Source: Eledone cirrhosa (Eukaryota). Taken from it: DNA of 64,000 bases. Both the position numbers and the translations under genes were made by a program. Location of the stretch: NCBI GenBank assembly GCA_964016885.1, contig OZ024748.1, positions 8,308,001 through 8,372,000 on the forward strand. Direction: 5' to 3'. Below the pieces are notes generated by a model. It had not been told where the DNA came from. It saw only the letters and a list, made by a program, of their open reading frames with translations, and ran no database searches. Positions 19,912 to 53,548 of this stretch are shown here, piece by piece (position 1 is the first letter of the stretch; each line of letters begins with the position of its first letter).

Positions 19912-20320
19912 ATATATAATATAATATAATATAATATAATATAATATAATATAATATAATATAATATATCATAATATAATATATTATATTATAATATAAT
20001 ATAATATATTATAATATAATATAATATATTATATTATAATATAATATAATATATTATATTATATTATAATATATTATATTATACTATAATATATTATAAT
20101 ATAATATAGTATAGTATCGTATAGTATAGTATAATCTAATATAGTATAGTATAATATAATATAATATAGTATAATATAATGTAATATACTATAATATAAT
20201 ATATTATATTATAATATATAGTATAGTATAGTATAGTATAATCTAATATAGTATAGTATAATATATTATAATATAGTATAATATAATGTAATAAAATGTA
20301 ATATAATATAATATAATATA
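19912..20320. repeat. (ATAAT)n/(ATAGT)n pentanucleotide microsatellite
   Basis: Direct inspection. Confidence 0.92.
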
Positions 20321-20499
20321 ATTGTTTCTACTTTTGGCACAAGGCCAGCAATTACCCAGTGCATTACTGGTACTTTATTTTATCGACCCCGTAAGGATGA
20401 AAGGCAAAGTAAACCTCGGCGGGATTTGAACTCAGAATGGCAAGGACCGTAACTCTATGCGCCAAAGCATGGCGTCCGACCCTCTACCGATACTGCCAA
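20317..20499 (-). mobile_element. tRNA-derived SINE with Nin/Deu-like central domain; an extra 3' fragment follows at ~20507-20567
   Basis: Minus strand TGGCAGTATCGG (A box), GAGTTCAAATCC (B box), GCCTTTCATCCTTACGGGGTCGATAAAATAAAGTACCAG, ending CCTTGTGCCAAAAGTAGAAACAATTATT. Confidence 0.75.
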
Positions 20500-20757
20500 T
20501 GTAATATAATTGTTTCTACTTTAGGCACAAGGCCAGCAAATACCCAGTGCATTACTGGTACTTTATAATAGTAATGGTCGTTTAAGGTGTGTAAATAAAT
20601 ATACTTTGTTCTTGTTTTGATACCAAAACCTGTCGATATTTCTCTGTTATATTGAATTTTTTTTTTAGTTCCTCAAAAAAAGAAGCAACAGTTTTTTAAC
20701 CAAAGAACATGATAACGTAATTGCATTTCAAACGGCAACGACTATATAACAATACAT

Positions 20758-21010
20758 GATGAACCTTTGAATTTTATTGTTGGCATAGCCGATGGCTTAA
20801 GACGGTCGCTTGACTAAACGTCAACGACTGTAGAAAAAATGTGATGAACCTTTGAATTGTATTGCTAATATAACCGCTGGTTTAAGACGGTCGCTTGATA
20901 ATCATTGTGTCTCAGGTTCGGTTCCATTGTGTGTTATATTGAAGAAGTGTCATTTACAATAACCTCGGATCGATAAATGTTTTTGGAGTGAAACGTATTT
21001 GGAAGCCTGT
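20758..21010 (+). mobile_element. Degenerate SINE-like head with a partial local duplication
   Basis: GATGAACCTTTGAATT...TTAAGACGGTCGCTTGA twice, then B-box-like GGTTCGGTTCC. Confidence 0.4.
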
Positions 21011-21126
21011 TGTATAGAGGGGCATCTTTAGGTTGTTCCGTTAATCAAATAACAGGAATTCTACACTCATCGTAGATATAGACGGAAGTCCATTACATTG
21101 CTAGCATTATTGTTCTAATTAAAGGG

Positions 21127-21346
21127 TTGGCAGTATTGGTAGAGCGTCGGACAACATGCTTAGCAGCATAGAGTTATGGCTTTTTACGTTCTGAGTTCAA
21201 ATCCCACCAAAGTTAGCTTTGCCTTTCATCCTTACGTACTGGGGTCGATAAAATAAAGCACCAATCACTGACTGCGGTCGATTTAATTGACTTTCTCTTC
21301 TCATAAAATTGCTGGCCTTGTGCCTAAATCAGAAACCATTATTATT
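21127..21346 (+). mobile_element. tRNA-derived SINE, same family as 20317-20499, with (ATT)3 tail
   Basis: TGGCAGTATTGG, GAGTTCAAATCC, GCCTTTCATCC...GGGGTCGATAAAATAAAG, 3' end CCTTGTGCCTAAATCAGAAACCATTATTATT. Confidence 0.8.
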
Positions 21347-21347
21347 T

Positions 21348-21583
21348 CACAGTAATGTACTGGGTAATTGCTGGCCTTGTGCCTAAAGTAGAAACCATTA
21401 TTATTTCACAGTAATGTACTGGGTAATTGCTGGCCTTGTGCCTAAAGTAGAAACCATTATTATTTCACAGTAATGTACTGGGTAATTGCTGGCCTTGTGC
21501 CTAAAGTAGAAACCATTATTATTTCACAGTAATGTACTGGGTAATTGCTGGCCTTGTGCCTAAAGTAGAAACAATTATTATTT
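21348..21583 (+). repeat. Four tandem 59-bp copies of the SINE 3' end
   Basis: CACAGTAATGTACTGGGTAATTGCTGGCCTTGTGCCTAAAGTAGAAAC(C/A)ATTATTATTT x4. Confidence 0.92.
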
Positions 21584-21733
21584 CAAATCCTGCTGAGGTT
21601 AACTTTGCCTTTCATGCTTTCGGGGTCGATAAAATAAAATACCAGTAACGCACTGTGGTTGATTTAATCGACTTTTCCCTCCCTACCAAAAAATTGCTGG
21701 CCTTGTGCCTAAATCAAAAACCATTATTGTTGT
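21582..21733 (+). mobile_element. 5'-truncated SINE copy starting at the B box
   Basis: TTCAAATCC...GCCTTTCATGCTTTCGGGGTCGATAAAAT...CCTTGTGCCTAAATCAAAAACCATTATT. Confidence 0.75.
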
Positions 21734-22349
21734 AATTAAGGCTGGAATATACTGAAGTCACGTTCTGTCTTAATTTTGTTTGTTGAAGATTCTAAAATAT
21801 TGCTGTAACATTTTGAAATCTAACCAGGTGTTTTTGAAATATAATTTTAATAAAGAAGCTACAACTTGTAAAGCTTTAAACATTTAAAAAAATAAAATAA
21901 CTACTCGCCTCTTTGCTGACTTTGGATGAAATGTTAACAATTGCTGGGCAGCTGACTTCTAGAATACTACATGTTATATGTTATCGTTCGGATGTTAACA
22001 GGCGTCTCTCATGGAAATACTAGTGTTCCCTCATCAATAATATTTTCACATATAGGGCTATTAACATGCAACTTCGACGTCGCATGCGCGATCTGTTTCA
22101 AAAGAGACCTTGAAAATATCTTCCACTGTAAACACAACTTAGTCATTATTACCACCGGGTCACAGCTATTAAACACAACAAAAACGCACACTTTTATATT
22201 AATGAAAAGTATCTACTTGAAGGGTGGTAACTTGATAGAGTAGTTAGAACATAGGATAGAATACCTTGTGGTATTTCTTTCAGCTCTCTGCTTTCTCAGT
22301 TCAATCCCACCGAGGTCAAATTTATTCACTCACACCCAAGTTATATAGT

Positions 22350-23043
22350 AGCACTACACGTCTTTACTATATCACACTACACTACACTGTTAAACACTAC
22401 ACTACACCACACTACACTGTTAAACACAACACTACACCACACTACACTGTTATACACTACACTGTAGTACACTGTAGTGCACTACACTACACCACATTAC
22501 ACTGTTATATACTACACTACGTTACACTACACTACACTAGGCTACACTACACTACACTACACTGTAGTACACTACACTACTTTGTATCACATTACATCAC
22601 ACTACACCACACTACACTGTTATACATTACACTACGCTACATTACGCTACCCTACACTACACTGTTATACACTACACTAAACTGTCATACACTACACTAC
22701 ATTACACTACACTACACTGTAGTATACTACACTACATTGTATTACATCACATCACACTACACTACACTGTAGTACACTACACTACATTGTAATATATTAC
22801 ATCCCACTACACTACACTGTAGTACACTACATTACATTGTATTACATTACATCACACTACACTACACTGTAGTATACTACACTACACTACACTATAGTAC
22901 ACTACACTACACAACACTACATTACACCATAGTACGCTACACTACACTACACTACATCACACTACATTAGACTGTACTACACTACACCACATTTCATGAA
23001 ACTACACACTGCAGTATGCTATACAGCATTACACTACACTACA
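22350..23043. repeat. Imperfect (ACACT)n pentanucleotide repeat
   Basis: ACTACACTAC units with variants. Confidence 0.92.
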
Positions 23044-23155
23044 TGAGGCTCTGGTAAATAACACATGAAATGCTATCGAACCTGGAACTTAATGATTGCG
23101 AAACGTACGATTTAACCATTTCGCGACTGCTGCGTTCATATATAACAGTTAGGTG

Positions 23156-23192
<37 letters not shown>

Positions 23193-23196
23193 TTTC

Positions 23197-23202
23197 TTTA
23201 TT
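23197..23202 (-). terminator. Polyadenylation-signal-like AATAAA just before the (ATT)n tail (present in every copy)
   Basis: Minus strand reads GGTTAATAAAGAAATC(ATT)n. Confidence 0.6.
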
Positions 23203-23452
23203 AACCACAAGGGTTTACATAAAGTAGACATTAAGGACAGTGCAGGACAATGCAGGACGGTACAAATGGGCATTTCTGCGTGTAAAAAAACAAAAACAGA
23301 GGATGTAACAAAAATAACAATGAAAATAACAATGAAAAATTCCCCAATAGGGGGGAGACTTCGGAGGGACATTTGTGGAGAAAGCCCAGTAAAAAGCCAC
23401 AATGACCCTGACCACCAAGGCAAGTGCCCTCTCCCAGTTTTCCACCTTTAGT

Positions 23453-26400
23453 TTACAGATATATACTCAGAGTCGGCCCATTCACTCGGGCCATTCTTGC
23501 TTCTCTCACCCATCTTTCAACAAAATGCTGGGAAGAGAGCACTTCCTTCTCTACTCTGATTTTCCTTTTCAAATGAAATTTGAAAAAGTCAATCAGAGCA
23601 TCACCGAAGAGGTAAGTGCTCGTCTTCAGCCCTTTCAAACGTGTCCACCATACTATCTCTTTCGCCATGGCCACCAGACAGATAAAAACTGCCTGCCCTT
23701 CCCGGCTAAAGGAGGAGGGCGGGGCAATCCTCACGATAGACTCAGATGATAGCTGGATCCGTCCTAAACGCGACAGCAGGTGTTCGACATAAACCCACAA
23801 GTCAGCAATTTTCGGACACTGGACGAGTGCGTGCAGGACGGTTTCGTCGCCCTGCGCGCATCTCGGACATGCCCGGCTGACGGCACCTCCATGCCTGTAG
23901 AGTTTATCCCGAACTGGCAAGGCTCCTCGGTAGCACTGCCAGGCCAGAGATTTCTGGAAGTTGTCCATAGGCCCTGGCCCGAAGGTTCTTCCGAAGAGAT
24001 TGGCTAGTTGATTTTCGTCGACGCCTAGAGTTTCCCCAAGTACGTCGTCGCTCTTCCCCTCCACTAATCCTCTATAGAACGCCGAGGTGGAGTTTCCACC
24101 GATCACATTGCCCGATTGGTCGAGGGCTGTGAGCGCCTGAAGACATTCCAGTCTCCAGGCGCTCCCTCTCGGTCTTCGCTTGACCCAGGACTGCAGCTCC
24201 GTCAAGGAAACGAGCTGGGGAAAAACGCGTCTAGCAAACGGCGACCACACCTGATCACCGTCGAGGAAGAGGTGGAGATGTCGTAGCCTGAGCGCGTGCC
24301 TGCGCATCATCAGCCACGGCATGCCCAGCCCTCCACGTAGCGGGTGTTGACAACAGATGGACCGCCTGACCATCGGAGCACGTCCCTTCCACAAAAAGCG
24401 AAAGAGCAAACGCTCCAGCGCAGTCAGGCGAGGCTTAGGACAAGGTACGACGGTTAGGCGGTAGCAGATGACAGACGCGATGTACGCGTTAGCCACCTCC
24501 GCTCGACCTTTCAGGGATAGCTTCCTCTCCGCCCATTTCTGGGTGAGAGAAGCCACCCTGCTCGTCACCTCGTCCCAGTTTTTGTCCGTCTGGAGGTCCG
24601 GACCGAACCAGACCCCTAGCAATTTAACCGGTCCGTCCGTCCAGCGCCCGACGACGCTGTTGGACGGCATGGACCTGCCTCTCCAGGTGCCGAGCTGCAG
24701 GCCCACTGACTTTTCCTGGTTGATCATTGCTCCTGTCACCGCTTCGTATTCTCTTAGTGTAGTGCCGATCGCCTCGATGTGTTTGGCGTTCGACACCACT
24801 ACGGTGACATCGTCCGCATATGCTGACACGGATCTTCCGCATCCTAGTTCGCGCGGGACTCCCCTCAACGTCTCCAGTTTGTGCAGTAATGGCTCGAGAG
24901 TCAATACGTACAAGAGGGACGAGAGGGGACATCCTTGGCGGACCGAGCGCATGATGTTGAACGGTTCCGACAGGTGACCGTTCACTCTCACCACAGAGCA
25001 GATGTCGCTGTGCATGGCAGCGATCCAGCCTCTGAAGACGGGCCCAAAGCCAGCCGCCCTCAGGACTGCCGCTAGGTAACGATGGTCGACCCTATCGAAA
25101 GCTTTCGACTGATCTAAATTGATCAAGGACCCACCCGTGCCAGGTTCCCTAGCTACCCTCTCTACGATGTATCGCATGAGGTGGAGGTTGTCGTGGATGG
25201 ATCTGTCGGGAATGGCGCATGTCTGCGCCTCTCCCACCAGACCACCAACGACAAGCGCCAACCTCTTTGCTAGCACCTTGGCCAAAATCTTAAACTCTGT
25301 GTTTAGCAGAGTTATGGGCCGGAAATTGTCTATGTTATCCCCCTTGTTCGGATCCTTTCTCAGCAGTGCCACCGCTCCTCGGCTCACAGAACTGGGAATT
25401 CTCCCGTTCTGTTGCCAGTTGCAGTAGACGTCCGCCAAGAGGCCTCCGAACAAGTCTGGCATCTGTACGTAAAGTTCATAGGGCAGACCATCCAAACCAG
25501 GCGATTTACCCCTTGTGCAGCCAGTCATTGCCTCCCTTACTTCAGCGGCTGTTATCGGCTTTTCGCAACACTTCGCCTCAGTGGCCGAGAGCCGCGGCAG
25601 TCCGTCGAGGTAGACACTAAAGTCCATCCCTCTACCCGGCCCCCCGCTGCCCCCGAACAGCTGAGCGAAGTGTCGCTGAAAAGCTTCACACATTTGCCCG
25701 GGATCGAGTAGCATGCGCCCGTCGTGGTCCACCAAAGACCGGATCGTGGCTTTGTTGCCACGACGCGCCTCCGCCACTCGGGCCCATTGAACGGCTTTCG
25801 TCCCCTCGTGTCTGAGAGCACGCACCCTAGCTCTGACAACGCAGCCTTCGTGCTTTGCATTGAAGAATTGGTCAAGGGCCAATTTCGCCGCAAGCACGTC
25901 GGTCGCAATGCCTTTGCTAAGCGCCTCGTCTAATTTTCTAACTAGTTCTCCCTCTGCTCTATTTTTCTCTATTGCTAAAGCCTTACTAAACCTAATCGAT
26001 TCTATTCTAATCGCTCTTTTCAGAGCAAACCACCACTTGTTGTTGACGATGGCCCCCGTCAACGCCCGCTTAACTAGTTCGCTAATCCGGTCTCTGTAGG
26101 CCTTGCGCGCTGGTAAGGACGCGTTTAGCTTCCAGTAGCCGGGTCCTCGTCTATGAAGCCTATCTAAGTCAAGCACACAGATCACGAATTTGTGGTCCGT
26201 GTAGCTGACTATCTTGAATTGTGGACAGCCTATGCTAGACCTATCTATTTCCCTACAAAATACTCTATCTAGATATGATCTGGATGACCCTATGCGGTTT
26301 GTCCAAGTCCACATTGGCACATTCGGGAAATCCAATCGGTACCTGTCAGACAGTTCAAAACGCCTGAGCAGGTTGGTGAGGCTCTTGCACCCTCCACCCC

Positions 26401-26872
26401 TATCCGCTAATCCCACACAGTCCCAGCGTGCATCTAAGATCCCGTTCCAGTCGCCCACTAACACTAAAGAGCGCGACGTTCCAAGAAAGGTCTCCAGACG
26501 CCGGAAGAAATCAGGCCGCCCTGCTCCTGTCGGGGCATAGACGGCCACTAGCCTGAAAGCTTGCCCGTCTCCGCTGGTCACGTCCAGCACCACCAGCTTA
26601 CCCTCTGGGTCCAGGAAGATGGCCCGTATGGCGAGATCCAAACCTCTCCGAAAAAGCACAGCAACTCCTCCACCCGATCCAGGACGGCTGGGAGATGCGT
26701 ACACATCGTAGCCGCCGAAGATCGGTGCGAAGGCCCGTGCTTCGGAGATTCTGGTCTCGCTGATGGCCACTACATCTATGTTTAGTGACCTGAGGTCGTT
26801 GAGCAGGTGACCCTGCTTCCATGACGACCCCAAGCCACGCGCATTTATGCTGCCTATTCTGAGTGAGGTCAT
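23453..26872 (-). CDS. LINE ORF2 (APE endonuclease + reverse transcriptase + C-terminal Cys/His zinc finger), 1139 aa, copy 1
   Basis: EN motifs GSINARG, ISET, VYAP, GDWN, SYLDR, TDH; RT motifs KSPGLDG, FRPITLLN, LDQSKAFDRVDH, RQGCPLS, YADD; C-terminal CPRC..ETVLHALVQC; GPGYWKLN linker typical of L1/Tx1. Confidence 0.96.
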   Translation of the reverse strand: MTSLRIGSINARGLGSSWKQGHLLNDLRSLNIDVVAISETRISEARAFAPIFGGYDVYASPSRPGSGGGVAVLFRRGLDLAIRAIFLDPEGKLVVLDVTSGDGQAFRLVAVYAPTGAGRPDFFRRLETFLGTSRSLVLVGDWNGILDARWDCVGLADRGGGCKSLTNLLRRFELSDRYRLDFPNVPMWTWTNRIGSSRSYLDRVFCREIDRSSIGCPQFKIVSYTDHKFVICVLDLDRLHRRGPGYWKLNASLPARKAYRDRISELVKRALTGAIVNNKWWFALKRAIRIESIRFSKALAIEKNRAEGELVRKLDEALSKGIATDVLAAKLALDQFFNAKHEGCVVRARVRALRHEGTKAVQWARVAEARRGNKATIRSLVDHDGRMLLDPGQMCEAFQRHFAQLFGGSGGPGRGMDFSVYLDGLPRLSATEAKCCEKPITAAEVREAMTGCTRGKSPGLDGLPYELYVQMPDLFGGLLADVYCNWQQNGRIPSSVSRGAVALLRKDPNKGDNIDNFRPITLLNTEFKILAKVLAKRLALVVGGLVGEAQTCAIPDRSIHDNLHLMRYIVERVAREPGTGGSLINLDQSKAFDRVDHRYLAAVLRAAGFGPVFRGWIAAMHSDICSVVRVNGHLSEPFNIMRSVRQGCPLSSLLYVLTLEPLLHKLETLRGVPRELGCGRSVSAYADDVTVVVSNAKHIEAIGTTLREYEAVTGAMINQEKSVGLQLGTWRGRSMPSNSVVGRWTDGPVKLLGVWFGPDLQTDKNWDEVTSRVASLTQKWAERKLSLKGRAEVANAYIASVICYRLTVVPCPKPRLTALERLLFRFLWKGRAPMVRRSICCQHPLRGGLGMPWLMMRRHALRLRHLHLFLDGDQVWSPFARRVFPQLVSLTELQSWVKRRPRGSAWRLECLQALTALDQSGNVIGGNSTSAFYRGLVEGKSDDVLGETLGVDENQLANLFGRTFGPGPMDNFQKSLAWQCYRGALPVRDKLYRHGGAVSRACPRCAQGDETVLHALVQCPKIADLWVYVEHLLSRLGRIQLSSESIVRIAPPSSFSREGQAVFICLVAMAKEIVWWTRLKGLKTSTYLFGDALIDFFKFHLKRKIRVEKEVLSSQHFVERWVREARMARVNGPTLSIYL

Positions 26873-26907
26873 GTTTAAAATAGAGTGGAAAAGATGGGAA
26901 AGACCAC

Positions 26908-29007
26908 TTACCGTATTTTTGGTAGAGGAGGGATGGTTTTTACATCCCTTTTCACTTGATCGTCTGGTGAAGGGACCGTTGAATCGTCCCTTCGGCTGGT
27001 CGTCGGCTCTTCTAAGAGAATGTCTGAATATACTCTTCGATTAATGGTTCCTCCTAGGTCCCTGAAATCACCAACTGCGTTGGGGAATTTCGTTTTAATG
27101 TTTGTGTATTGTTTCTGTGCTATTTTTAGCAGTCTTATGTTAGTTGGCGTTTTGATTGGTGCTGGTATTATGTAGTCCTGTTGTGAAATGTCTGTGTGTT
27201 CAATTATGTAAGTCATTAGTTTCTTGTTGTGTGTGTTTATTGCCGTGCATTTGTTTTTCTGGGGGTGGGGTGTGGTTCTGCTATTTTCTTGTCGTTGTTG
27301 CTGGGTGTGTGTGTTTTGTTGTTGTGTTTGCGATGTTGGTGCTTGTGGTGGTGGTGTTGAAGGTGTTGTTGGCGGTGGGGTTGTCGCCGGTGGTGATGGT
27401 GGTGCTGGTGTGGGTGGTGATGGTGTTGGTGGTGTTGCTGCTGTGGGTCTCTTTGCAGTAGACTTTACCCTTTTCTCATTTCTTTCCTCCCTTTTCAAAG
27501 GCGACGATGCGCTGCTTCTGCGTTTGTGCCTTCTTGAGACCTTTTGCCATCCCTCTCCCACCTCACACTCCATGTCTGATTCTGTAAGGTCGGGGAGGGG
27601 TACCAGCTCCACTCTTTCACTTGTTGTTGTTGGTGATGTTTGCACTGGAGTCTCTGTTGCAGCTGCATTTGGTATTGCTGTTGTTGTTGTTAATATTTCC
27701 ACTGCTGCTGCTGTCTTTGATTTCCGTGGAGTGGGTATGGGTGCCACGGACCTATCGTTCCTGGTTGCCGCTTGTCCTGTTGCTGGTAGCCGTGGAACCG
27801 GATTCGGGAGGAGGGGGGTTTTCTCCTTTCTCAGGGTCTTCTCGTTGCAGAAGGCCCTGAGGTGAGTCTTCGATCCACAGCGAAAGCATTTCGGGCGTTT
27901 GCCCTCAACACTTATGGGCAGTTGAGTGCCGTTATCGAAGTCTATCACATCCGGGATAGCTTCGATGCACTCCTGGTTGGTTTGTATTAGCATCTCAATG
28001 GAGGAGCCGACCCAATCTTCTCTTACTTTTTTCTGTACTTGCAGTACAGTTGTTTTGTCCTCGATTCCGACGAGGACAGACGCGGCCAGCCAAGAAGGGG
28101 TCATTCCGGGGGGGACGTGGGTCAGTTTGACCCTCACAATTTTTTGCCCGCAGTAGGAGGGCACCAACACCATTTCCTCGCTCCTTAGGGTCACTACTGA
28201 TTGGGCCTTTGCCTCCTGGGGTGTGGCAAAAAGTACGTCTACGGTGGCGTATTTTTTGCCTCGGGTGATGTGCGTTTTCCTCTGCCACACAGACCCCAAG
28301 GCTTTTTGTATTTGGGCCTCTGTGGCTCTTTCCACCCTACGGGATTTTGTACTTACTGTACGGTACGTGACCGTACAGTGCTCTTGGGTTTCGAAAAAAT
28401 TTTTCGCTGCCTTGCAGATTGCTCGGTGTCCGTTCTTTGTCACCATCTTCTTCGCTTCCTCTAATTCCTCATTTGTTATGAGGATTGTTTCCAGGTTTTT
28501 CGCAATACCTGCAAATGAGATTGGTTTTTCTCTGCTGTTGTTGTTGTCGTCAGAGCTGCTGGTACTTTTGTTGTTGCTGCAGGTACTACGACTACTGCCT
28601 CCGCCGCTGTTGCTGTGGTTGTTGTTGGTGTTGCTGCTGCTAATGGTGTTGTTGTTTATGCTGCTGGTGATGCTGTTGCGGCTGCTACTGTTGTTTTCAT
28701 TGTCACTGTTGCTGTTGTTATTACGGCTGCTACTGCTATTATTCCTGACGTCAGACGAATGAACTGGGTTTTCGTATTTCCCGCACACCTGTTTCGTCGC
28801 TGTCGTCGTCGTCGTGGAGAAACCTTGCACGCTTTGCACGAGACTTTTCTTTTCTTTCGTCGCTTGCGAAAGAGAAGGTAGGGAGAGAGACACATTTAAA
28901 GAAGGGAGGGAGAGAGACAATCTTCTCTCTCCTGTAGTGATGATTGAGGAAGAAGAAGACGGAATGAGTGGGAGTGACGTATGAAATTTTTTTTTTTTGG
29001 TAGCCAT
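26908..29007 (-). CDS. LINE ORF1 (gag-like nucleic-acid-binding protein), 699 aa from first ATG, copy 1
   Basis: CCHC knuckle CFRCGSKTHLRAFC (C-X2-C-X4-H-X4-C); N/S-rich N-terminus, Pro/Thr-rich C-terminal part, basic RRHKRR; first ATG (AACATGG) at 29007, whereas the ORF-track start at 29040 is a TTG. Confidence 0.9.
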   Translation of the reverse strand: MATKKKKFHTSLPLIPSSSSSIITTGERRLSLSLPSLNVSLSLPSLSQATKEKKSLVQSVQGFSTTTTTATKQVCGKYENPVHSSDVRNNSSSSRNNNSNSDNENNSSSRNSITSSINNNTISSSNTNNNHSNSGGGSSRSTCSNNKSTSSSDDNNNSREKPISFAGIAKNLETILITNEELEEAKKMVTKNGHRAICKAAKNFFETQEHCTVTYRTVSTKSRRVERATEAQIQKALGSVWQRKTHITRGKKYATVDVLFATPQEAKAQSVVTLRSEEMVLVPSYCGQKIVRVKLTHVPPGMTPSWLAASVLVGIEDKTTVLQVQKKVREDWVGSSIEMLIQTNQECIEAIPDVIDFDNGTQLPISVEGKRPKCFRCGSKTHLRAFCNEKTLRKEKTPLLPNPVPRLPATGQAATRNDRSVAPIPTPRKSKTAAAVEILTTTTAIPNAAATETPVQTSPTTTSERVELVPLPDLTESDMECEVGEGWQKVSRRHKRRSSASSPLKREERNEKRVKSTAKRPTAATPPTPSPPTPAPPSPPATTPPPTTPSTPPPQAPTSQTQQQNTHTQQQRQENSRTTPHPQKNKCTAINTHNKKLMTYIIEHTDISQQDYIIPAPIKTPTNIRLLKIAQKQYTNIKTKFPNAVGDFRDLGGTINRRVYSDILLEEPTTSRRDDSTVPSPDDQVKRDVKTIPPLPKIR

Positions 29008-29220
29008 GTTTTTTTGTTTAAAATGAAATTTTGGGTACAAAACCCCAATAACTGGCTATTTAACCCCGAAGGGCCAAATAACGGACAGAAAGACCCCTCT
29101 CACGAGGAGGAGGGTGTCTTTATCAACAATTTGGTTCAAGTTTTAAACAATTTACAATTGTTTTAACGGTTAAAAATTACTATACCTTACAGAGCCGAGC
29201 CTCCGTCAACCATGGCATTC
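29008..29220 (-). promoter_or_regulatory. LINE 5'UTR (213 nt; probable internal promoter / structured leader); same position in all six copies
   Basis: Lies between the element 5' end and the ORF1 ATG; multiple stem-loops including a cUUCGg-capped one; short uORF MVDGGSAL (29213-29187). Confidence 0.6.
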
Positions 29221-29252
<32 letters not shown>

Positions 29253-29512
29253 TTTCTTTATTAACCACAAGGGTTTACATAAAGTAGACATTAAGGACAG
29301 TGCAGGACAATGCAGGACGGTACAAATGGGCATTTCTGCGTGTAAAAAAACAAAAACAGAGGATGTAACAAAAATAACAATGAAAATAACAATGAAAAAT
29401 TCCCCAATAGGGGGGAGACTTCGGAGGGACATTTGTGGAGAAAGCCCAGTAAAAAGCCACAATGACCCTGACCACCAAGGCAAGTGCCCTCTCCCAGTTT
29501 TCCACCTTTAGT

Positions 29513-32500
29513 TTACAGATATATACTCAGAGTCGGCCCATTCACTCGGGCCATTCTTGCTTCTCTCACCCATCTTTCAACAAAATGCTGGGAAGAGAGC
29601 ACTTCCCTCTCTACTCTGATTTTCCTTTTCAAATGAAATTTGAAAAAGTCAATCAGAGCATCACCGAAGAGGTAAGTGCTCGTCTTCAGCCCTTTCAAAC
29701 GTGTCCACCATACTATCTCTTTCGCCATGGCCACCAGACAGATAAAAACTGCCTGCCCTTCCCGGCTAAAGGAGGAGGGCGGGGCAATCCTCACGATGGA
29801 CCCAGATGATAGCTGGATCCGTCCTAAACGCGACAGCAGGTGTTCGACATAAACCCACAAGTCAGCAATTTTCGGACACTGGACGAGTGCGTGCAGGACG
29901 GTTTCGTCGCCCTGCGCGCATCTCGGACATGCCCGGCTGACGGCACCTCCATGCCTGTAGAGTTTATCCCGAACTGGCAAGGCTCCTCGGTAGCACTGCC
30001 AGGCCAGAGATTTCTGGAAGTTGTCCATAGGCCCTGGCCCGAAAGTTCTTCCGAAGAGATTGGCTAGTTGATTTTCGTCGACGCCTAGAGTTTCCCCAAG
30101 TACGTCGTCGCTCTTCCCCTCCACTAATCCTCTATAGAACGCCGAGGTGGAGTTTCCACCGATCACATTGCCCGATTGGTCGAGGGCTGTGAGCGCCTGA
30201 AGACATTCCAGTCTCCAGGCGCTCCCTCTCGGTCTTCGCTTGACCCAGGACTGCAGCTCCGTCAAGGAAACGAGCTGGGGAAAAACGCGTCTAGCAAACG
30301 GCGACCACACCTGATCACCGTCGAGGAAGAGGTGGAGATGTCGTAGCCTGAGCGCGTGCCTGCGCATCATCAGCCACGGCATGCCCAGCCCTCCACGTAG
30401 CGGGTGTTGACAACAGATGGACCGCCTGACCATCGGAGCACGTCCCTTCCACAAAAAGCGAAAGAGCAAACGCTCCAGCGCAGTCAGGCGAGGCTTAGGA
30501 CAAGGTACGACGGTTAGGCGGTAGCAGATGACAGACGCGATGTACGCGTTAGCCACCTCCGCTCGACCTTTCAGGGATAGCTTCCTCTCCGCCCATTTCT
30601 GGGTGAGAGAAGCCACCCTGCTCGTCACCTCGTCCCAGTTTTTGTCCGTCTGGAGGTCCGGACCGAACCAGACCCCTAGCAATTTAACCGGTCCGTCCGT
30701 CCAGCGCCCGACGACGCTGTTGGACGGCATGGACCTGCCTCTCCAGGTGCCGAGCTGCAGGCCCACTGACTTTTCCTGGTTGATCATTGCTCCTGTCACC
30801 GCTTCGTATTCTCTTAGTGTAGTGCCGATCGCCTCGATGTGTTTGGCGTTCGACACCACTACGGTGACATCGTCCGCATATGCTGACACGGATCTTCCGC
30901 ATCCTAGTTCGCGCGGGACTCCCCTCAACGTCTCCAGTTTGTGCAGTAATGGCTCGAGAGTCAATACGTACAAGAGGGACGAGAGGGGACATCCTTGGCG
31001 GACCGAGCGCATGATGTTGAACGGTTCCGACAGGTGACCGTTCACTCTCACCACAGAGCAGATGTCGCTGTGCATGGCAGCGATCCAGCCTCTGAAGACG
31101 GGCCCAAAGCCAGCCGCCCTCAGGACTGCCGCTAGGTAACGATGGTCGACCCTATCGAAAGCTTTCGACTGATCTAAATTGATCAAGGACCCACCCGTGC
31201 CAGGTTCCCTAGCTACCCTCTCTACGATGTATCGCATGAGGTGGAGGTTGTCGTGGATGGATCTGTCGGGAATGGCGCATGTCTGCGCCTCTCCCACCAG
31301 ACCACCAACGACAAGCGCCAACCTCTTTGCTAGCACCTTGGCCAAAATCTTAAACTCTGTGTTTAGCAGAGTTATGGGCCGGAAATTGTCTATGTTATCC
31401 CCCTTGTTCGGATCCTTTCTCAGCAGTGCCACCGCTCCTCGGCTCACAGAACTGGGAATTCTCCCGTTCTGTTGCCAGTTGCAGTAGACGTCCGCCAAGA
31501 GGCCTCCGAACAAGTCTGGCATCTGTACGTAAAGTTCATAGGGCAGACCATCCAAACCAGGCGATTTACCCCTTGTGCAGCCAGTCATTGCCTCCCGTAC
31601 TTCAGCGGCTGTTATCGGCTTTTCGCAACACCTCGCCTCAGTGGCCGAGAGCCGCGGCAGCCCGTCGAGGTAGACACTAAAGTCCATCCCTCTACCCGGC
31701 CCCCCGCTGCCCCCGAACAGCTGAGCGAAGTGTCGCTGAAAAGCTTCACACATTTGCCCGGGATCGAGTAGCATGCGCCCGTCGTGGTCCACCAAAGACC
31801 GGATCGTGGCTTTGTTGCCACGACGCGCCTCCGCCACTCGGGCCCATTGAACGGCTTTCGTCCCCTCGTGTCTGAGAGCACGCACCCTAGCTCTGACAAC
31901 GCAGCCTTCGTGCTTTGCATTGAAGAATTGGTCAAGGGCCAATTTCGCCGCAAGCACGTCGGTCGCAATGCCTTTGCTAAGCGCCTCGTCTAATTTTCTA
32001 ACTAGTTCTCCCTCTGCTCTATTTTTCTCTATTGCTAAAGCCTTACTAAACCTAATCGATTCTATTCTAATCGCTCTTTTCAGAGCAAACCACCACTTGT
32101 TGTTGACGATGGCCCCCGTCAACGCCCGCTTAACTAGTTCGCTAATCCGGTCTCTGTAGGCCTTGCGCGCTGGTAAGGACGCGTTTAGCTTCCAGTAGCC
32201 GGGTCCTCGTCTATGAAGCCTATCTAAGTCAAGCACACAGATCACGAATTTGTGGTCCGTGTAGCTGACTATCTTGAATTGTGGACAGCCTATGCTAGAC
32301 CTATCTATTTCCCTACAAAATACTCTATCTAGATATGATCTGGATGACCCTATGCGGTTTGTCCAAGTCCACATTGGCACATTCGGGAAATCCAATCGGT
32401 ACCTGTCAGACAGTTCAAAACGCCTGAGCAGGTTGGTGAGGCTCTTGCACCCTCCACCCCTATCCGCTAATCCCACACAGTCCCAGCGTGCATCTAAGAT

Positions 32501-32932
32501 CCCGTTCCAGTCGCCCACTAACACTAAAGAGCGCGACGTTCCAAGAAAGGTCTCCAGACGCCGGAAGAAATCAGGCCGCCCTGCTCCTGTCGGGGCATAG
32601 ACGGCCACTAGCCTGAAAGCTTGCCCGTCTCCGCTGGTCACGTCCAGCACCACCAGCTTACCCTCTGGGTCCAGGAAGATGGCCCGTATGGCGAGATCCA
32701 AACCTCTCCGAAAAAGTACAGCAACTCCTCCACCGGATCCAGGACGGCTGGGAGATGCGTACACATCGTAGCCGCCGAAGATCGGTGCGAAGGCCCGTGC
32801 TTCGGAGATTCTGGTCTCGCTGATGGCCACTACATCTATGTTTAGTGACCTGAGGTCGTTGAGCAGGTGACCCTGCTTCCATGACGACCCCAAGCCACGC
32901 GCATTTATGCTGCCTATTCTGAGTGAGGTCAT
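29513..32932 (-). CDS. LINE ORF2 (EN-RT-ZnF), copy 2
   Basis: Intact 1139 aa; same motifs as copy 1. Confidence 0.96.
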   Translation of the reverse strand: MTSLRIGSINARGLGSSWKQGHLLNDLRSLNIDVVAISETRISEARAFAPIFGGYDVYASPSRPGSGGGVAVLFRRGLDLAIRAIFLDPEGKLVVLDVTSGDGQAFRLVAVYAPTGAGRPDFFRRLETFLGTSRSLVLVGDWNGILDARWDCVGLADRGGGCKSLTNLLRRFELSDRYRLDFPNVPMWTWTNRIGSSRSYLDRVFCREIDRSSIGCPQFKIVSYTDHKFVICVLDLDRLHRRGPGYWKLNASLPARKAYRDRISELVKRALTGAIVNNKWWFALKRAIRIESIRFSKALAIEKNRAEGELVRKLDEALSKGIATDVLAAKLALDQFFNAKHEGCVVRARVRALRHEGTKAVQWARVAEARRGNKATIRSLVDHDGRMLLDPGQMCEAFQRHFAQLFGGSGGPGRGMDFSVYLDGLPRLSATEARCCEKPITAAEVREAMTGCTRGKSPGLDGLPYELYVQMPDLFGGLLADVYCNWQQNGRIPSSVSRGAVALLRKDPNKGDNIDNFRPITLLNTEFKILAKVLAKRLALVVGGLVGEAQTCAIPDRSIHDNLHLMRYIVERVAREPGTGGSLINLDQSKAFDRVDHRYLAAVLRAAGFGPVFRGWIAAMHSDICSVVRVNGHLSEPFNIMRSVRQGCPLSSLLYVLTLEPLLHKLETLRGVPRELGCGRSVSAYADDVTVVVSNAKHIEAIGTTLREYEAVTGAMINQEKSVGLQLGTWRGRSMPSNSVVGRWTDGPVKLLGVWFGPDLQTDKNWDEVTSRVASLTQKWAERKLSLKGRAEVANAYIASVICYRLTVVPCPKPRLTALERLLFRFLWKGRAPMVRRSICCQHPLRGGLGMPWLMMRRHALRLRHLHLFLDGDQVWSPFARRVFPQLVSLTELQSWVKRRPRGSAWRLECLQALTALDQSGNVIGGNSTSAFYRGLVEGKSDDVLGETLGVDENQLANLFGRTFGPGPMDNFQKSLAWQCYRGALPVRDKLYRHGGAVSRACPRCAQGDETVLHALVQCPKIADLWVYVEHLLSRLGRIQLSSGSIVRIAPPSSFSREGQAVFICLVAMAKEIVWWTRLKGLKTSTYLFGDALIDFFKFHLKRKIRVEREVLSSQHFVERWVREARMARVNGPTLSIYL

Positions 32933-32967
32933 GTTTAAAATAGAGTGGAAAAGATGGGAAAGACCAC

Positions 32968-35067
32968 TTACCGTACTTTTGGTAGAGGAGGGATGGTTTT
33001 TACATCCCTTTTCACTTGATCGTCTGGTGAAGGGACCGTTGAATCGTCCCTTCGGCTGGTCGTCGGCTCTTCTAAGAGAATGTCTGAGTATACTCTTCGA
33101 TTGATGGTTCCTCCTAGGTCCCTGAAATCACCAACTGCGTTGGGGAATTTCGTTTTAATATTTGTGTATTGTTTCTGTGCTATTTTTAGCAGTCTTATGT
33201 TAGTTGGCGTTTTGATTGGTGCTGGTATTATGTAGTCCTGTTGTGAAATGTCTGTGTGTTCAATTATGTAAGTCATTAGTTTCTTGTTGTGTGTATTTAT
33301 TGCCGTGCATTTGTTTTTCTGGGGGTGGGGTGTGGTTCTACTATTTTCTTGTCGTTGTTGCTGGGTGTGTGTGTTTTGTTGTTGTGTTTGCGATGTTGGT
33401 GCTTGTGGTGGTGGTGTTGAAGGTGTTGTTGGCGGTGGGGTTGTCGCCGGTGGTGATGGTGGCGCTAGTGTGGGTGGTGATGGTGTTGGTGTTGTTGCTG
33501 CTGTGGGTCTCTTTGCAGTAGACTTTACCCTTTTCTCATTTCTTTCCTCCCTTTTCAAAGGCGACGATGCGCTGCTTCTGCGTTTGTGCCTTCTTGAGAC
33601 CTTTTGCCATCCCTCTCCCACCTCACACTCCATGTCTGATTCTGTAAGGTCGGGGAGGGGTACCAGCTCCACTCTTTCACTTGTTGTTGTTGGTGATGTT
33701 TGCACTGGAGTCTCTGTTGCAGCTGCATTTGGTATTGCTGTTGTTGTTGTTAATATTTCCACTGCTGCTGCTGTCTTTGATTTCCGTGGAGTGGGTATGG
33801 GTGCCACGGACCTATCGTTCCTGGTTGCCGCTTGTCCTGTTGCTGGTAGCCGTGGAACCGGATTCGGGAGGAGGGGGGTTTTCTCCTTTCTCAGGGTCTT
33901 CTCGTTGCAGAAGGCCCTGAGGTGAGTCTTCGATCCACAGCGAAAGCATTTCGGGCGTTTGCCCTCAACACTTATGGGCAGTTGAGTGCCGTTATCGAAG
34001 TCTATCACATCCGGGATAGCTTCGATGCACTCCTGGTTGGTTTGTATTAGCATCTCAATGGAGGAGCCGACCCAATCTTCTCTTACTTTTTTCTGTACTT
34101 GCAGTACAGTTGTTTTGTCCTCGATTCCGACGAGGACAGACGCGGCCAGCCAAGAAGGGGTCATTCCGGGGGGGACGTGGGTCAGTTTGACCCTCACAAT
34201 TTTTTGCCCGCAGTAGGAGGGCACCAACACCATTTCCTCGCTCCTTAGGGTCACTACTGATTGGGCCTTTGCCTCCTGGGGTGTGGCAAAAAGTACGTCT
34301 ACGGTGGCGTATTTTTTGCCTCGGGTGATGTGCGTTTTCCTCTGCCACACAGACCCCAAGGCTTTTTGTATTTGGGCCTCTGTGGCTCTTTCCACCCTAC
34401 GGGATTTTGTACTTACTGTACGGTACGTGACCGTACAGTGCTCTTGGGTTTCGAAAAAATTTTTCGCTGCCTTGCAGATTGCTCGGTGTCCGTTCTTTGT
34501 CACCATCTTCTTCGCTTCCTCTAATTCCTCATTTGTTATGAGGATTGTTTCCAGGTTTTTCGCAATACCTGCAAATGAGATTGGTTTTTCTCTGCTGTTG
34601 TTGTTGTCGTCAGAGCTGCTGGTACTTTTGTTGTTGCTGCAGGTACTACGACTACTGCCTCCGCCGCTGTTGCTGTGGTTGTTGTTGGTGTTGCTGCTGC
34701 TAATGGTGTTGTTGTTTATGCTGCTGGTGATGCTGTTGCGGCTGCTACTGTTGTTTTCATTGTCACTGTTGCTGTTGTTATTACGGCTGCTACTGCTATT
34801 ATTCCTGACGTCAGACGAATGAACTGGGTTTTCGTATTTCCCGCACACCTGTTTCGTCGCTGTCGTCGTCGTCGTGGAGAAACCTTGCACGCTTTGCACG
34901 AGACTTTTCTTTTCTTTCGTCGCTTGCGAAAGAGAAGGTAGGGAGAGAGACACATTTAAAGAAGGGAGGGAGAGAGACAATCTTCTCTCTCCTGTAGTGA
35001 TGATTGAGGAAGAAGAAGACGGAATGAGTGGGAGTGACGTATGAAATTTTTTTTTTTTGGTAGCCAT
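32968..35067 (-). CDS. LINE ORF1, copy 2
   Basis: Intact; CCHC knuckle; several private substitutions near the C-terminus (ends PKVR). Confidence 0.9.
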   Translation of the reverse strand: MATKKKKFHTSLPLIPSSSSSIITTGERRLSLSLPSLNVSLSLPSLSQATKEKKSLVQSVQGFSTTTTTATKQVCGKYENPVHSSDVRNNSSSSRNNNSNSDNENNSSSRNSITSSINNNTISSSNTNNNHSNSGGGSSRSTCSNNKSTSSSDDNNNSREKPISFAGIAKNLETILITNEELEEAKKMVTKNGHRAICKAAKNFFETQEHCTVTYRTVSTKSRRVERATEAQIQKALGSVWQRKTHITRGKKYATVDVLFATPQEAKAQSVVTLRSEEMVLVPSYCGQKIVRVKLTHVPPGMTPSWLAASVLVGIEDKTTVLQVQKKVREDWVGSSIEMLIQTNQECIEAIPDVIDFDNGTQLPISVEGKRPKCFRCGSKTHLRAFCNEKTLRKEKTPLLPNPVPRLPATGQAATRNDRSVAPIPTPRKSKTAAAVEILTTTTAIPNAAATETPVQTSPTTTSERVELVPLPDLTESDMECEVGEGWQKVSRRHKRRSSASSPLKREERNEKRVKSTAKRPTAATTPTPSPPTLAPPSPPATTPPPTTPSTPPPQAPTSQTQQQNTHTQQQRQENSRTTPHPQKNKCTAINTHNKKLMTYIIEHTDISQQDYIIPAPIKTPTNIRLLKIAQKQYTNIKTKFPNAVGDFRDLGGTINRRVYSDILLEEPTTSRRDDSTVPSPDDQVKRDVKTIPPLPKVR

Positions 35068-35280
35068 GTTTTTTTGTTTAAAATGAAATTTTGGGTACAA
35101 AACCCCAATAACTGGCTATTTAACCCCGAAGGGCCAAATAACGGACAGAAAGACCCCTCTCACGAGGAGGAGGGTGTCTTTATCAACAATTTGGTTCAAG
35201 TTTTAAACAATTTACAATTGTTTTAACGGTTAAAAATTACTATACCTTACAGAGCCGAGCCTCCGTCAACCATGGCATTC

Positions 35281-35330
<50 letters not shown>

Positions 35331-35591
35331 TTTCTTTATTAACCACAAGGGTTTACATAAAGTAGACATTAAGGACAGTGCAGGACAATGCAGGACGGTA
35401 CAAATGGGCATTTCTGCGTGTAAAAAAAACAAAAATAGAGGATGTAACAAAAATAACAATGAAAATAACAATGAAAAATTCCCCAATAGGGGGGAGACTT
35501 CGGAGGGACATTTGTGGAGAAAGCCCAGTAAAAAGCCACAATGACCCTGACCACCAAGGCAAGTGCCCTCTCCCAGTTTTCCACCTTTAGT

Positions 35592-38500
35592 TTACAGATA
35601 TATACTCAGAGTCGGCCCATTCACTCGGGCCATTCTTGCTTCTCTCACCCATCTTTCAACAAAATGCTGGGAAGAGAGCACTTCCTTCTCTACTCTGATT
35701 TTCCTTTTCAAATGAAATTTGAAAAAGTCAATCAGAGCATCACCGAAGAGGTAAGTGCTCGTCTTCAGCCCTTTCAAACGTGTCCACCATACTATCTCTT
35801 TCGCCATGGCCACCAGACAGATAAAAACTGCCTGCCCTTCCCGGCTAAAGGAGGAGGGCGGGGCAATCCTCACGATAGACTCAGATGATAGCTGGATCCG
35901 TCCTAAACGCGACAGCAGGTGTTCGACATAAACCCACAAGTCAGCAATTTTCGGACACTGGACGAGTGCGTGCAGGACGGTTTCGTCGCCCTGCGCGCAT
36001 CTCGGACATGCCCGGCTGACGGCACCTCCATGCCTGTAGAGTTTATCCCGAACTGGCAAGGCTCCTCGGTAGCACTGCCAGGCCAGAGATTTCTGGAAGT
36101 TGTCCATAGGCCCTGGCCCGAAGGTTCTTCCGAAGAGATTGGCTAGTTGATTTTCGTCGACGCCTAGAGTTTCCCCAAGTACGTCGTCGCTCTTCCCCTC
36201 CACTAATCCTCTATAGAACGCCGAGGTGGAGTTTCCACCGATCACATTGCCCGATTGGTCGAGGGCTGTGAGCGCCTGAAGACATTCCAGTCTCCAGGCG
36301 CTCCCTCTCGGTCTTCGCTTGACCCAGGACTGCAGCTCCGTCAAGGAAACGAGCTGGGGAAAAACGCGTCTAGCAAACGGCGACCACACCTGATCACCGT
36401 CGAGGAAGAGGTGGAGATGTCGTAGCCTGAGCGCGTGCCTGCGCATCATCAGCCACGGCATGCCCAGCCCTCCACGTAGCGGGTGTTGACAACAGATGGA
36501 CCGCCTGACCATCGGAGCACGTCCCTTCCACAAAAAGCGAAAGAGCAAACGCTCCAGCGCAGTCAGGCGAGGCTTAGGACAAGGTACGACGGTTAGGCGG
36601 TAGCAGATGACAGACGCGATGTACGCGTTAGCCACCTCCGCTCGACCTTTCAGGGATAGCTTCCTCTCCGCCCATTTCTGGGTGAGAGAAGCCACCCTGC
36701 TCGTCACCTCGTCCCAGTTTTTGTCCGTCTGGAGGTCCGGACCGAACCAGACCCCTAGCAATTTAACCGGTCCGTCCGTCCAGCGCCCGACGACGCTGTT
36801 GGACGGCATGGACCTGCCTCTCCAGGTGCCGAGCTGCAGGCCCACTGACTTTTCCTGGTTGATCATTGCTCCTGTCACCGCTTCGTATTCTCTTAGTGTA
36901 GTGCCGATCGCCTCGATGTGTTTGGCGTTCGACACCACTACGGTGACATCGTCCGCATATGCTGACACGGATCTTCCGCATCCTAGTTCGCGCGGGACTC
37001 CCCTCAACGTCTCCAGTTTGTGCAGTAATGGCTCGAGAGTCAATACGTACAAGAGGGACGAGAGGGGACATCCTTGGCGGACCGAGCGCATGATGTTGAA
37101 CGGTTCCGACAGGTGACCGTTCACTCTCACCACAGAGCAGATGTCGCTGTGCATGGCAGCGATCCAGCCTCTGAAGACGGGCCCAAAGCCAGCCGCCCTC
37201 AGGACTGCCGCTAGGTAACGATGGTCGACCCTATCGAAAGCTTTCGACTGATCTAAATTGATCAAGGACCCACCCGTGCCAGGTTCCCTAGCTACCCTCT
37301 CTACGATGTATCGCATGAGGTGGAGGTTGTCGTGGATGGATCTGTCGGGAATGGCGCATGTCTGCGCCTCTCCCACCAGACCACCAACGACAAGCGCCAA
37401 CCTCTTTGCTAGCACCTTGGCCAAAATCTTAAACTCTGTGTTTAGCAGAGTTATGGGCCGGAAATTGTCTATGTTATCCCCCTTGTTCGGATCCTTTCTC
37501 AGCAGTGCCACCGCTCCTCGGCTCACAGAACTGGGAATTCTCCCGTTCTGTTGCCAGTTGCAGTAGACGTCCGCCAAGAGGCCTCCGAACAAGTCTGGCA
37601 TCTGTACGTAAAGTTCATAGGGCAGACCATCCAAACCAGGCGATTTACCCCTTGTGCAGCCAGTCATTGCCTCCCTTACTTCAGCGGCTGTTATCGGCTT
37701 TTCGCAACACTTCGCCTCAGTGGCCGAGAGCCGCGGCAGTCCGTCGAGGTAGACACTAAAGTCCATCCCTCTACCCGGCCCCCCGCTGCCCCCGAACAGC
37801 TGAGCGAAGTGTCGCTGAAAAGCTTCACACATTTGCCCGGGATCGAGTAGCATGCGCCCGTCGTGGTCCACCAAAGACCGGATCGTGGCTTTGTTGCCAC
37901 GACGCGCCTCCGCCACTCGGGCCCATTGAACGGCTTTCGTCCCCTCGTGTCTGAGAGCACGCACCCTAGCTCTGACAACGCAGCCTTCGTGCTTTGCATT
38001 GAAGAATTGGTCAAGGGCCAATTTCGCCGCAAGCACGTCGGTCGCAATGCCTTTGCTAAGCGCCTCGTCTAATTTTCTAACTAGTTCTCCCTCTGCTCTA
38101 TTTTTCTCTATTGCTAAAGCCTTACTAAACCTAATCGATTCTATTCTAATCGCTCTTTTCAGAGCAAACCACCACTTGTTGTTGACGATGGCCCCCGTCA
38201 ACGCCCGCTTAACTAGTTCGCTAATCCGGTCTCTGTAGGCCTTGCGCGCTGGTAAGGACGCGTTTAGCTTCCAGTAGCCGGGTCCTCGTCTATGAAGCCT
38301 ATCTAAGTCAAGCACACAGATCACGAATTTGTGGTCCGTGTAGCTGACTATCTTGAATTGTGGACAGCCTATGCTAGACCTATCTATTTCCCTACAAAAT
38401 ACTCTATCTAGATATGATCTGGATGACCCTATGCGGTTTGTCCAAGTCCACATTGGCACATTCGGGAAATCCAATCGGTACCTGTCAGACAGTTCAAAAC

Positions 38501-39011: not shown

Positions 39012-39046
39012 GTTTAAAATAGAGTGGAAAAGATGGGAAAGACCAC

Positions 39047-41146: not shown

Positions 41147-41359
41147 GTTGTTTTGTTTAAAATGAAATTTTGGGTACAAAACCCCAATAACTGGCTATTT
41201 AACCCCGAAGGGCCAAATAACGGACAGAAAGACCCCTCTCACGAGGAGGAGGGTGTCTTTATCAACAATTTGGTTCAAGTTTTAAACAATTTACAATTGT
41301 TTTAACGGTTAAAAATTACTATACCTTACAGAGCCGAGCCTCCGTCAACCATGGCATTC

Positions 41360-41397
<38 letters not shown>

Positions 41398-41657
41398 TTT
41401 CTTTATTAACCACAAGGGTTTACATAAAGTAGACATTAAGGACAGTGCAGGACAATGCAGGACGGTACAAATGGGCATTTCTGCGTGTAAAAAAACAAAA
41501 ACAGAGGATGTAACAAAAATAACAATGAAAATAACAATGAAAAATTCCCCAATAGGGGGGAGACTTCGGAGGGACATTTGTGGAGAAAGCCCAGTAAAAA
41601 GCCACAATGACCCTGACCACCAAGGCAAGTGCCCTCTCCCAGTTTTCCACCTTTAGT

Positions 41658-45077: not shown

Positions 45078-45112
45078 GTTTAAAATAGAGTGGAAAAGAT
45101 GGGAAAGACCAC

Positions 45113-47425: not shown

Positions 47426-47463
<38 letters not shown>

Positions 47464-51162: not shown

Positions 51163-51197
51163 GTTTAAAATAGAGTGGAAAAGATGGGAAAGACCAC

Positions 51198-53510: not shown

Positions 53511-53548
<38 letters not shown>

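Follow-up and report, generated by a model that had tools for sequence, protein, structure and literature searches.

Which enzyme copies the short interspersed element (SINE) found beside an array of long interspersed elements (LINEs) in Eledone cirrhosa? The locus lies on contig OZ024748.1 of assembly GCA_964016885.1 (positions 8,308,001 to 8,372,000, forward strand). This one 64-kb window (64,000 nucleotides) is the whole stretch of DNA that was analyzed, and all positions below are counted from its first letter. The LINE side of the comparison of ends was one Tx1-type family, present in six copies. We found that the SINE shares a 22-nucleotide (nt) 3' end and ATT-repeat insertion sites with this LINE, and it was likely copied by the open reading frame (ORF) 2 protein of that lineage, at a probability that we put at about 0.65. 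Use of a Tx1-lineage enzyme is favored because the 22-nt ends match, the same hairpin is predicted at both, and both elements sit in ATT-repeat DNA.

The LINE and the SINE share a 3' terminus

The elements compared were as follows.
23191..29220, minus strand: LINE copy U1, Tx1-type, full length, 6030 bp
23191..23212, minus strand: terminal 22 nt of the LINE, common to the SINE
21123..21346, plus strand: SINE copy A, near full length, with A and B boxes, a Nin-like core, the shared tail, and (ATT)3
21307..21585, plus strand: 59-bp minisatellite, 4.7 copies of a unit that joins (ATT)3 to a SINE 3' end with an internal deletion
21585..21722, plus strand: SINE copy B, truncated on its 5' side at the B box
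20323..20499, minus strand: SINE copy C, internally deleted form
20511..20566, minus strand: SINE fragment D, consisting of the 3' end alone and lying immediately upstream of C
62601..62697, plus strand: SINE copy E, 5'-truncated, with the shared tail and (ATT)2

The five copies A-E aligned together with the 59-bp repeat as one SINE family that has two forms, full and internally deleted. The LINE end (23212 to 23191, minus strand) had the same letters in all six LINE copies. CCTTGTG occurred in the matching register in the plus-strand SINE ends at 21316, 21375/21434/21493/21552 (the 59-bp repeats), 21701, and 62670, and in the minus-strand ends at 20344 and 20532. The letters of the LINE and SINE ends written out in a preliminary description of this locus were verified in the window. 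The 16 matches to the last 22 nt of the LINE reported there held for copy A and the first 59-bp unit; copy E also had 16, the fourth unit, B, and D had 15, and C had 14 (seven of the nine SINE ends were scored). None of these alignments needed a gap, and all kept register with the first ATT. Over the next 38 nt upstream the SINE and the LINE agreed at 8-12 positions only, which is the background level, so the likeness ended at 22 nt; similarity past this point or in the SINE body was rejected on these scores and by BLASTN. Further occurrences of CCTTGTG, at 22264 and within ORF2, were rejected as copies of the tail, being without the AGAAA/ATT end.

The match was evaluated by an end-anchored score, the mean of four SINE copies (A, B, C, and E) with the ATT tail excluded; the null over window positions left out the SINE regions and the five duplicate LINE copies. 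This score was equaled at one of 64,651 other window positions, in none of 100,000 mononucleotide shuffles, and in 23 of 50,000 dinucleotide shuffles. When the register was allowed to move by ±3, it was equaled in 43 of 30,000 shuffles. The match count over the last 22 nt was reached in none of 200,000 shuffles, and in 81 of 200,000 when the A-rich half was shuffled separately. These results confirmed that the terminal match is real, with an anchored shuffle p of about 4e-4 to 1.4e-3.

Some observations weigh against giving the match much meaning. The common stretch is just 22 nt long and half A-rich, and the window was chosen from many by a reader seeking such matches. The preliminary description had also named shuffled controls as a check. 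The anchored nulls were beaten, but an unanchored BLASTN search (word 6, E<=5) of three tail-less SINE copies against the whole LINE did not report the terminal match; with the ATT tail included, it was reported at E=0.012 in the window. These points bear on the alternative that another clade using ATT or TAA (RTE, Dong-R4, or CR1/L2) mobilizes the SINE, the 22-nt match being due to chance, A-rich ends, and a shared niche. Besides the match being invisible when unanchored, this alternative gains from the partners on record for Deu/Nin SINEs, which in a 2013 table are CR1, L2, Crack, or RSg-1 and in no case Tx1 (PMC3747384). However, the anchored nulls that keep composition gave p at most 1.4e-3, and we judge the alternative unlikely.

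Both 3' ends are predicted to fold the same hairpin

Two hairpins were predicted.
23203..23215, minus strand: LINE hairpin with a stem of 4 bp and a CUUGU loop whose start is 21 nt from the end
21314..21324, plus strand: SINE hairpin (copy A) with a stem of 3 bp and the same loop at the same distance from the end

The predicted pair probabilities were 0.82-0.90 for the inner three pairs of the LINE and 0.80-0.87 for copy A, and those of the inner pairs ranged from 0.80 to 0.98 across the LINE, copies A, B, and E, and R1. The closing C-G pair was common to the LINE and SINE hairpins. In the next two stem pairs the LINE has C-G followed by A-U, and each of the six aligned SINE ends has G-C twice; both positions that differ had changed on both sides and still paired (2/2), and this compensated pairing was lost when the stem partners were slid by 1-3 columns. 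The observed pair counts were reached in 14 of 500 column shuffles, a number that reflects the single LINE row. A shared CUUGU-loop hairpin with a compensated stem is suggestive, not proof, of a common fold. The preliminary description had presented CCTTGTG-N2-TAA-N3-AGAAA-N-C as a linear cis recognition motif. The shared terminus held up, but it is better read as a stem-loop whose stem takes in the N2 mismatches, paired with bases upstream of them. Zebrafish L2 has a loop that is recognized specifically and a stem that tolerates exchange (PMC4176376), and compensated stems are found in maize L1/SINE pairs (PMC3747384).

Several results temper this prediction. The hairpin was weak in copy C (pair probabilities 0.38-0.64), and the folding energy of the ends was no more favorable than that of shuffles (z of -1.58 for the LINE and +0.55 to -0.79 for the SINE ends). 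The compensation amounts to two pairs in two lineages, with the structure derived from the same sequences, and the chance of both LINE positions pairing was 7.9% for Watson-Crick pairs and 17.9% with G-U pairs. Nevertheless, the identical CUUGU loop and the compensation of both stem changes count against mobilization by another clade.

The compensated changes also suggest constraint in both lines, which bears on the direction of transfer. A Tx1 copy might have taken the SINE 3' end, by 3' transduction or by recombination in an ATT run, and the match would then say nothing of the driver. The SINE is older and very numerous, and both elements lie in ATT runs, where tandem neighbors arise, as this direction would lead one to expect. 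In contrast, the likeness is confined to 22 nt, the LINE 3' untranslated region bearing no trace of the SINE body, and the SINE would still need an ATT-cutting enzyme. Transfer from the SINE to the LINE is, in our view, improbable.

The shared tail is the main form of an abundant SINE family

The SINE is non-coding, about 215 nt long, and present in high copy, with a simple-repeat tail. Motifs resembling A and B boxes were present in copies A and C, and by these motifs the head is tRNA-like, with internal RNA polymerase III A and B boxes. ARAGORN found no tRNA genes in the window; an Rfam scan of the window returned 106 matches at E<=1, none of which reached the gathering score or fell on the SINE copies. 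The A and B boxes and the Nin-like core bore out the preliminary description of the SINE as tRNA/Nin-like. We regard the core as probably of the Nin/Deu type, partly in view of reports on octopus SINEs. Those of the tRNA-Deu type are a main SINE class in octopus (PMC8967140, PMC13282606) and make up 61 Mb in O. vulgaris (PMC13282606).

The core agreed with SINE-like metagenome repeats at 30-33 of 37 positions (four of the 17 loci scored, all chosen by the core motif), and its recurrence with other heads and tails is what a conserved domain would be expected to show. The metagenome scan with the Nin-like motif yielded these 17 loci, none of them assignable to this SINE family from its head or tail; at best, 11-14 of 22 letters agreed with either 22-mer. 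The repeats, L001-L017, have the same core and GC-richer heads and tails, several end near a CTTTACCTTT-like stretch, and they probably derive from animal hosts of the metagenome samples. A scan of viral contigs with the tail motif gave two loci without a Nin core, which were dismissed as chance.

To sample the family more widely, we used run X2, a public sequencing run containing 87% of the sampled words of the LINE, whose contigs were picked by likeness to copy A and aligned to it. The number of contigs aligned was 68,218. Across the tail (21313-21345) no alternative letter reached 15%, whereas the SINE body had many variants, indicating that the shared tail is the main form of the family. 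Beyond 21346, the 3' loose ends of 1,273 contigs read (ATT)n, and the 5' loose ends showed that the SINE head extends a few letters past that of copy A. Two raw-read runs, X22 and X23, gave no reads aligned to the SINE, so they provided no test. The deletion from 21263 to 21307 that characterizes the 59-bp minisatellite unit was seen in nine contigs of run X2.

The uniform tail bears on a further alternative, in which the Tx1 protein mobilizes the SINE in a relaxed manner, by (ATT)n and target pairing only, with the 22 nt a relic of template switching and the hairpin incidental. The drift of 6-8 of the 22 letters and the weak folding z-scores fit such a history, as does crocodilian SINEU-1, for which the available text reports that no LINE with a common 3' terminus was found (PMC4494074). 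However, a tail without a variant at 15% beside a variable body (in contigs chosen by likeness to copy A) and differences next to the loop that keep pairing argue otherwise, making relaxed mobilization highly improbable.

(ATT)n is the likely target of both elements

The features that bear on the target are the following.
23156..23190, minus strand: (ATT)11, 3' flank of the LINE array
29251..59576, minus strand: intact LINE copies U2-U6 overall, head to tail, with (ATT)10-16 between copies
29251..35280, minus strand: U2
35329..41359, minus strand: U3
41396..47425, minus strand: U4
47480..53510, minus strand: U5
53547..59576, minus strand: U6
59577..59633, minus strand: interrupted (ATT)n, 5' flank of the array, containing the 18-bp interrupted part 59613-59630
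21105..21122, plus strand: left copy of a target-site duplication, 18 bp, 17/18 identical, enclosing A, the repeats, and B
21722..21739, plus strand: right copy of the duplication, starting at the SINE's last C and ATT run

At this one locus, (ATT)n occupied all five LINE junctions and bordered the array at both ends, beyond the last copy as well as ahead of the first, the 5'-most one. The 18-bp interrupted ATT stretch at 59613-59630 was repeated exactly at 47462-47479, after U5, that is, around U6 and U5. Because ATT stands at the junctions and on both flanks and the 18-bp stretch recurs after U5, (ATT)n is the likely target of the LINE, new copies landing in the run beside an old one. The 18-bp repeat has the pattern of a target duplication, but unequal crossing-over could also give it. 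It equals the SINE target duplication in length.

The 18-bp duplication around the SINE block was matched in one of 2,000 shuffles and in none of about 4,000 random 35-mers. At copy C, an 11-bp stretch starting with ATT just before the head recurs in (ATATT)n after the end (5 of 2,000 shuffles). ATT/AAT-type runs of at least three units sit at a LINE or SINE end in 14 of 16 cases in the window. Tail-to-head SINE tandems were found in at least 55 contigs of run X2 (four of 15 joint rows listed). The preliminary description had treated (ATT)n as a tail common to both elements and borrowed by the SINE. It is indeed the tail of both, but the flanks and duplications mark it as at least partly target DNA, and the local SINE tails have just two or three units (two in E and B), those of C and D continuing into an (ATATT)n tract. 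Two tandem repeats were seeded by SINE ends, namely the 59-bp minisatellite at 21307-21585 and the (ATATT)n at 19914-20322 that runs out of the tail of C.

Other data fit this target less well. Duplications were clear in two of the four SINE cases, with none at D and E (565 and 382 of 2,000 shuffles), and the tail-to-head joints were without a chance control, the letters between tail and head being not known. The consensus of the 5' loose ends (1,368 contigs) had T at all 19 of 19 upstream places without ATT phase, at an agreement of 0.51 over 30 letters. Such a T-rich 5' flank fits mixed-phase ATT but equally other T-rich targets.

The nature of the target again raises the possibility of an enzyme from another clade. 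Molluscan Dong elements target (TAA)n (PMC7998251), the octopus element RTE-2_OV has a microsatellite end (PMC9115989), and a T stretch lies upstream of RTE insertions (PMC6007223), the SINE 5' flanks being T-rich as well. Moreover, RTE (106 Mb), Dong-R4 (93 Mb), and CR1 (62 Mb) all exceed L1-Tx1 (56 Mb, 80 families) in O. vulgaris (PMC13282606). In RTE, however, the T stretch lies about 10 nt upstream of the duplication (PMC6007223), whereas here the T-rich letters adjoin the SINE head. The one clear SINE duplication is without a T run at that place. Dong has TAA on the sense strand, opposite to the ATT seen here, which also counts against an enzyme of another clade. Target duplications measure 7-18 bp in the L1 clade and 7-15 bp in RTE (PMC6007223); the 18-bp SINE duplication is within the former range and above the latter (n=1). 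Tx1 elements, for their part, are commonly target-specific, some of them for microsatellites (PMC4494074).

A Tx1-lineage enzyme as the probable driver of the SINE

The preferred reading, that the ORF2 protein of the Tx1 lineage copied the SINE, would involve the following steps. SINE RNA would be transcribed from the internal promoter and would display the 3' hairpin of the LINE and an ATT run. ORF2 would then bind it, recognizing the loop by sequence and the stem by shape, and would nick ATT-rich DNA and prime reverse transcription at the nick. Insertion would leave a duplication of about 18 bp, and copies would stack in each other's tails. The SINE may have acquired its tail by a template switch; this step and the mode of binding are modeled on L2 and plant L1 biology.

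The ages of the copies weigh against the present LINE family as the source. The SINE copies were 77-86% alike in nine of ten pairs (C and D, 95%), compared with more than 99.5% for the LINEs, and judged by this divergence the local SINE copies are much older than the LINE copies here. Because of this difference, an ancestor or sister of the present family is the better candidate for the driver of the local SINEs, an assignment that we make tentatively and at somewhat less than even odds; that the present family itself made them is rather unlikely. The preliminary description had named this Tx1 family or a relative as the driver. The terminal match, the hairpin, and the ATT sites support the lineage, but the exact family is too young.

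A broader reading is that one of the dominant octopus SINE families owes its spread to capture of the 3' hairpin from a Tx1 element specific for (ATT)n, with which it inherited microsatellite targeting, and we see the chances for and against it as evenly balanced. If true, stringent RNA recognition would exist in an animal L1-group lineage, which bears on the proposal of ancestral stringency. The reading would also identify the driver of a major class of octopus SINEs and account for the stacking of SINEs in ATT runs and the seeding of minisatellites. The six intact LINE copies provide a ready ORF2 for an assay.

Comparison with known SINE/LINE pairs

SINE/LINE pairs that share a tail are well known, and the Tx1-driven precedent found in the literature searched, the crocodilian SINEU with Tx1-Mar, rests on shared targets, not on a shared tail. 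SINEU resembles the present SINE in being proposed as Tx1-driven through shared targets, but it has small nuclear RNA heads, poly(A) tails, and a Mariner element as target (PMC4494074). The present SINE, in contrast, has a tRNA-like and Nin-like structure, ends in 22 shared nt that are not poly(A), is predicted to fold a hairpin there, and has a microsatellite as its target. Eel UnaSINE/UnaL2 and zebrafish ZfL2 likewise have a 3' stem-loop and a short terminal repeat, but they belong to the L2 clade and their mechanism was assayed (PMC4176376), whereas the present Tx1-like pair is known from sequence.

The pairs of maize/sorghum ZmSINE2/3 with LINE1-1_ZM and of Chlamydomonas SINEX-3_CR with L1-1_CR combine, as here, an L1-group LINE and a tRNA SINE with a common 3' end, and the monocot pair has a compensated hairpin (PMC3747384). 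They differ in coming from plants and algae, in a longer shared region, and in poly(A)/poly(T) ends; the Chlamydomonas pair shares about 80 nt (PMC3747384), against which the 22 nt found here are a weakness of our case. In the 2013 table, L1-group partners are just those of monocots and a green alga, with no Tx1 and no animal L1-group element (PMC3747384).

Kibi and Koshi are Tx1-clade elements inserted in simple repeats, like the present LINE, but the targets there are (TC)n, (TTC)n, and, in crocodilian relatives, (TTCC)n/(TTTC)n (PMC4494074). We found no precedent for an (ATT)n-targeting Tx1 element in the literature searched, and an (ATT)n-specific endonuclease, if true, would widen the known target range of Tx1. 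The octopus tRNA-Deu and Nin-DC SINEs have a tRNA head and a Nin/Deu-like core, as here, and no partner LINE is given for them in the available text of PMC8967140, PMC13282606, and PMC4824008. For bivalve SINEs the partners are CR1-Zenon, CR1, L2, and Nimb, with Tx1 unmentioned in the available text (PMC11481361, PMC4758252). The literature searched, which did not cover Repbase Reports and subscription papers, paired no octopus or Deu/Nin SINE with a Tx1 element; a Tx1-SINE pair may be on record in those sources, for example in the 1994 octopus SINE paper.

Classification and structure of the LINE array

The coding regions of copy U1 are as follows.
26908..29055, minus strand: ORF1, stop-to-stop
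23453..26872, minus strand: ORF2, 1139 amino acids, with endonuclease, reverse transcriptase (RT), and zf-RVT

The LINE has a two-ORF layout, and PF03372, PF00078, and PF13966 hit the APE endonuclease, RT, and C-terminal zinc-binding (zf-RVT) domains of ORF2. The ORF2 protein scored 327 bits against Xenopus Tx1 ORF2 (29% identity over 980 columns), compared with 181 bits against LINE-1 ORF2p and 79 bits against R2. Because of these scores we class the LINE as Tx1-like, by similarity rather than by an RT tree, in agreement with the domains and with the preliminary assignment to Tx1. The top named match of ORF2 was from Argonauta hians (69%), which fits an octopod host. A large group of relatives without names (P0003-P0066), nearly all from ENA, had 38-48% identity and was nearer to ORF2 than any Tx1 from fish or frogs; clusters in it comprise 385 and 732 members. 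No ORF2-related locus was found in viral contigs, and none of nine candidates in prokaryote genomes was upheld.

Parts of the LINE occurred in public sequencing runs under 16 organism labels, and at least half of the LINE words in 11 runs under eight labels; no RNA run was among the runs listed as containing the LINE. Run X5 contained 84% of the LINE words but yielded only seven SINE contigs, compared with 68,218 in X2. This contrast and the many labels could reflect trace host DNA, RNA, or a LINE common to several species.

The array extends from 59576 to 23191 on the minus strand as six head-to-tail copies of 6030-6031 bp each, with ORF1 and ORF2 open in all. Pairs of copies differed by 7-25 letters over 6031 columns. 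A single collapsed assembly repeat was ruled out, since every copy has private differences and the spacer lengths vary. The differences were mosaic: U2 carried 12 of its own, the letters at three sites (alignment columns 3620-3684) alternated between U1/U3/U5 and U2/U4/U6, and three sites joined U1 with U2. This mosaic pattern suggests that conversion or unequal exchange may have acted besides separate insertions.

Other repeats in the window

A second, older tRNA-like repeat family was found at 20870-21020 (plus strand), 23040-23135 (minus), 2510-2570 (plus), and 3227-3321 (minus). Its members were 66-70% alike over 59-72 nt and had B-box-like motifs, and one of them lies about 25 bp past the 3' ATT run of the LINE array. 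At 22255-22325 there is a degenerate fragment resembling a SINE head, with a B-box-like motif and no BLAST link to other copies; by eye, it is like an alternative head in the loose ends before 21190 in run X2. An inverted piece of SINE core at 62545-62600, with a weak match (72% over 32 nt, E 0.21), adjoins the 5'-truncated copy E and may represent either a 5' inversion or an older, oppositely oriented copy. Six minisatellites were located at 5689-6117, 7282-7779, 9217-9443, 9568-11947, 15791-16198, and 61047-62074, with periods of 48, 20, 41, 65, 45, and 31 bp, respectively, and an internal identity above 95% in most.

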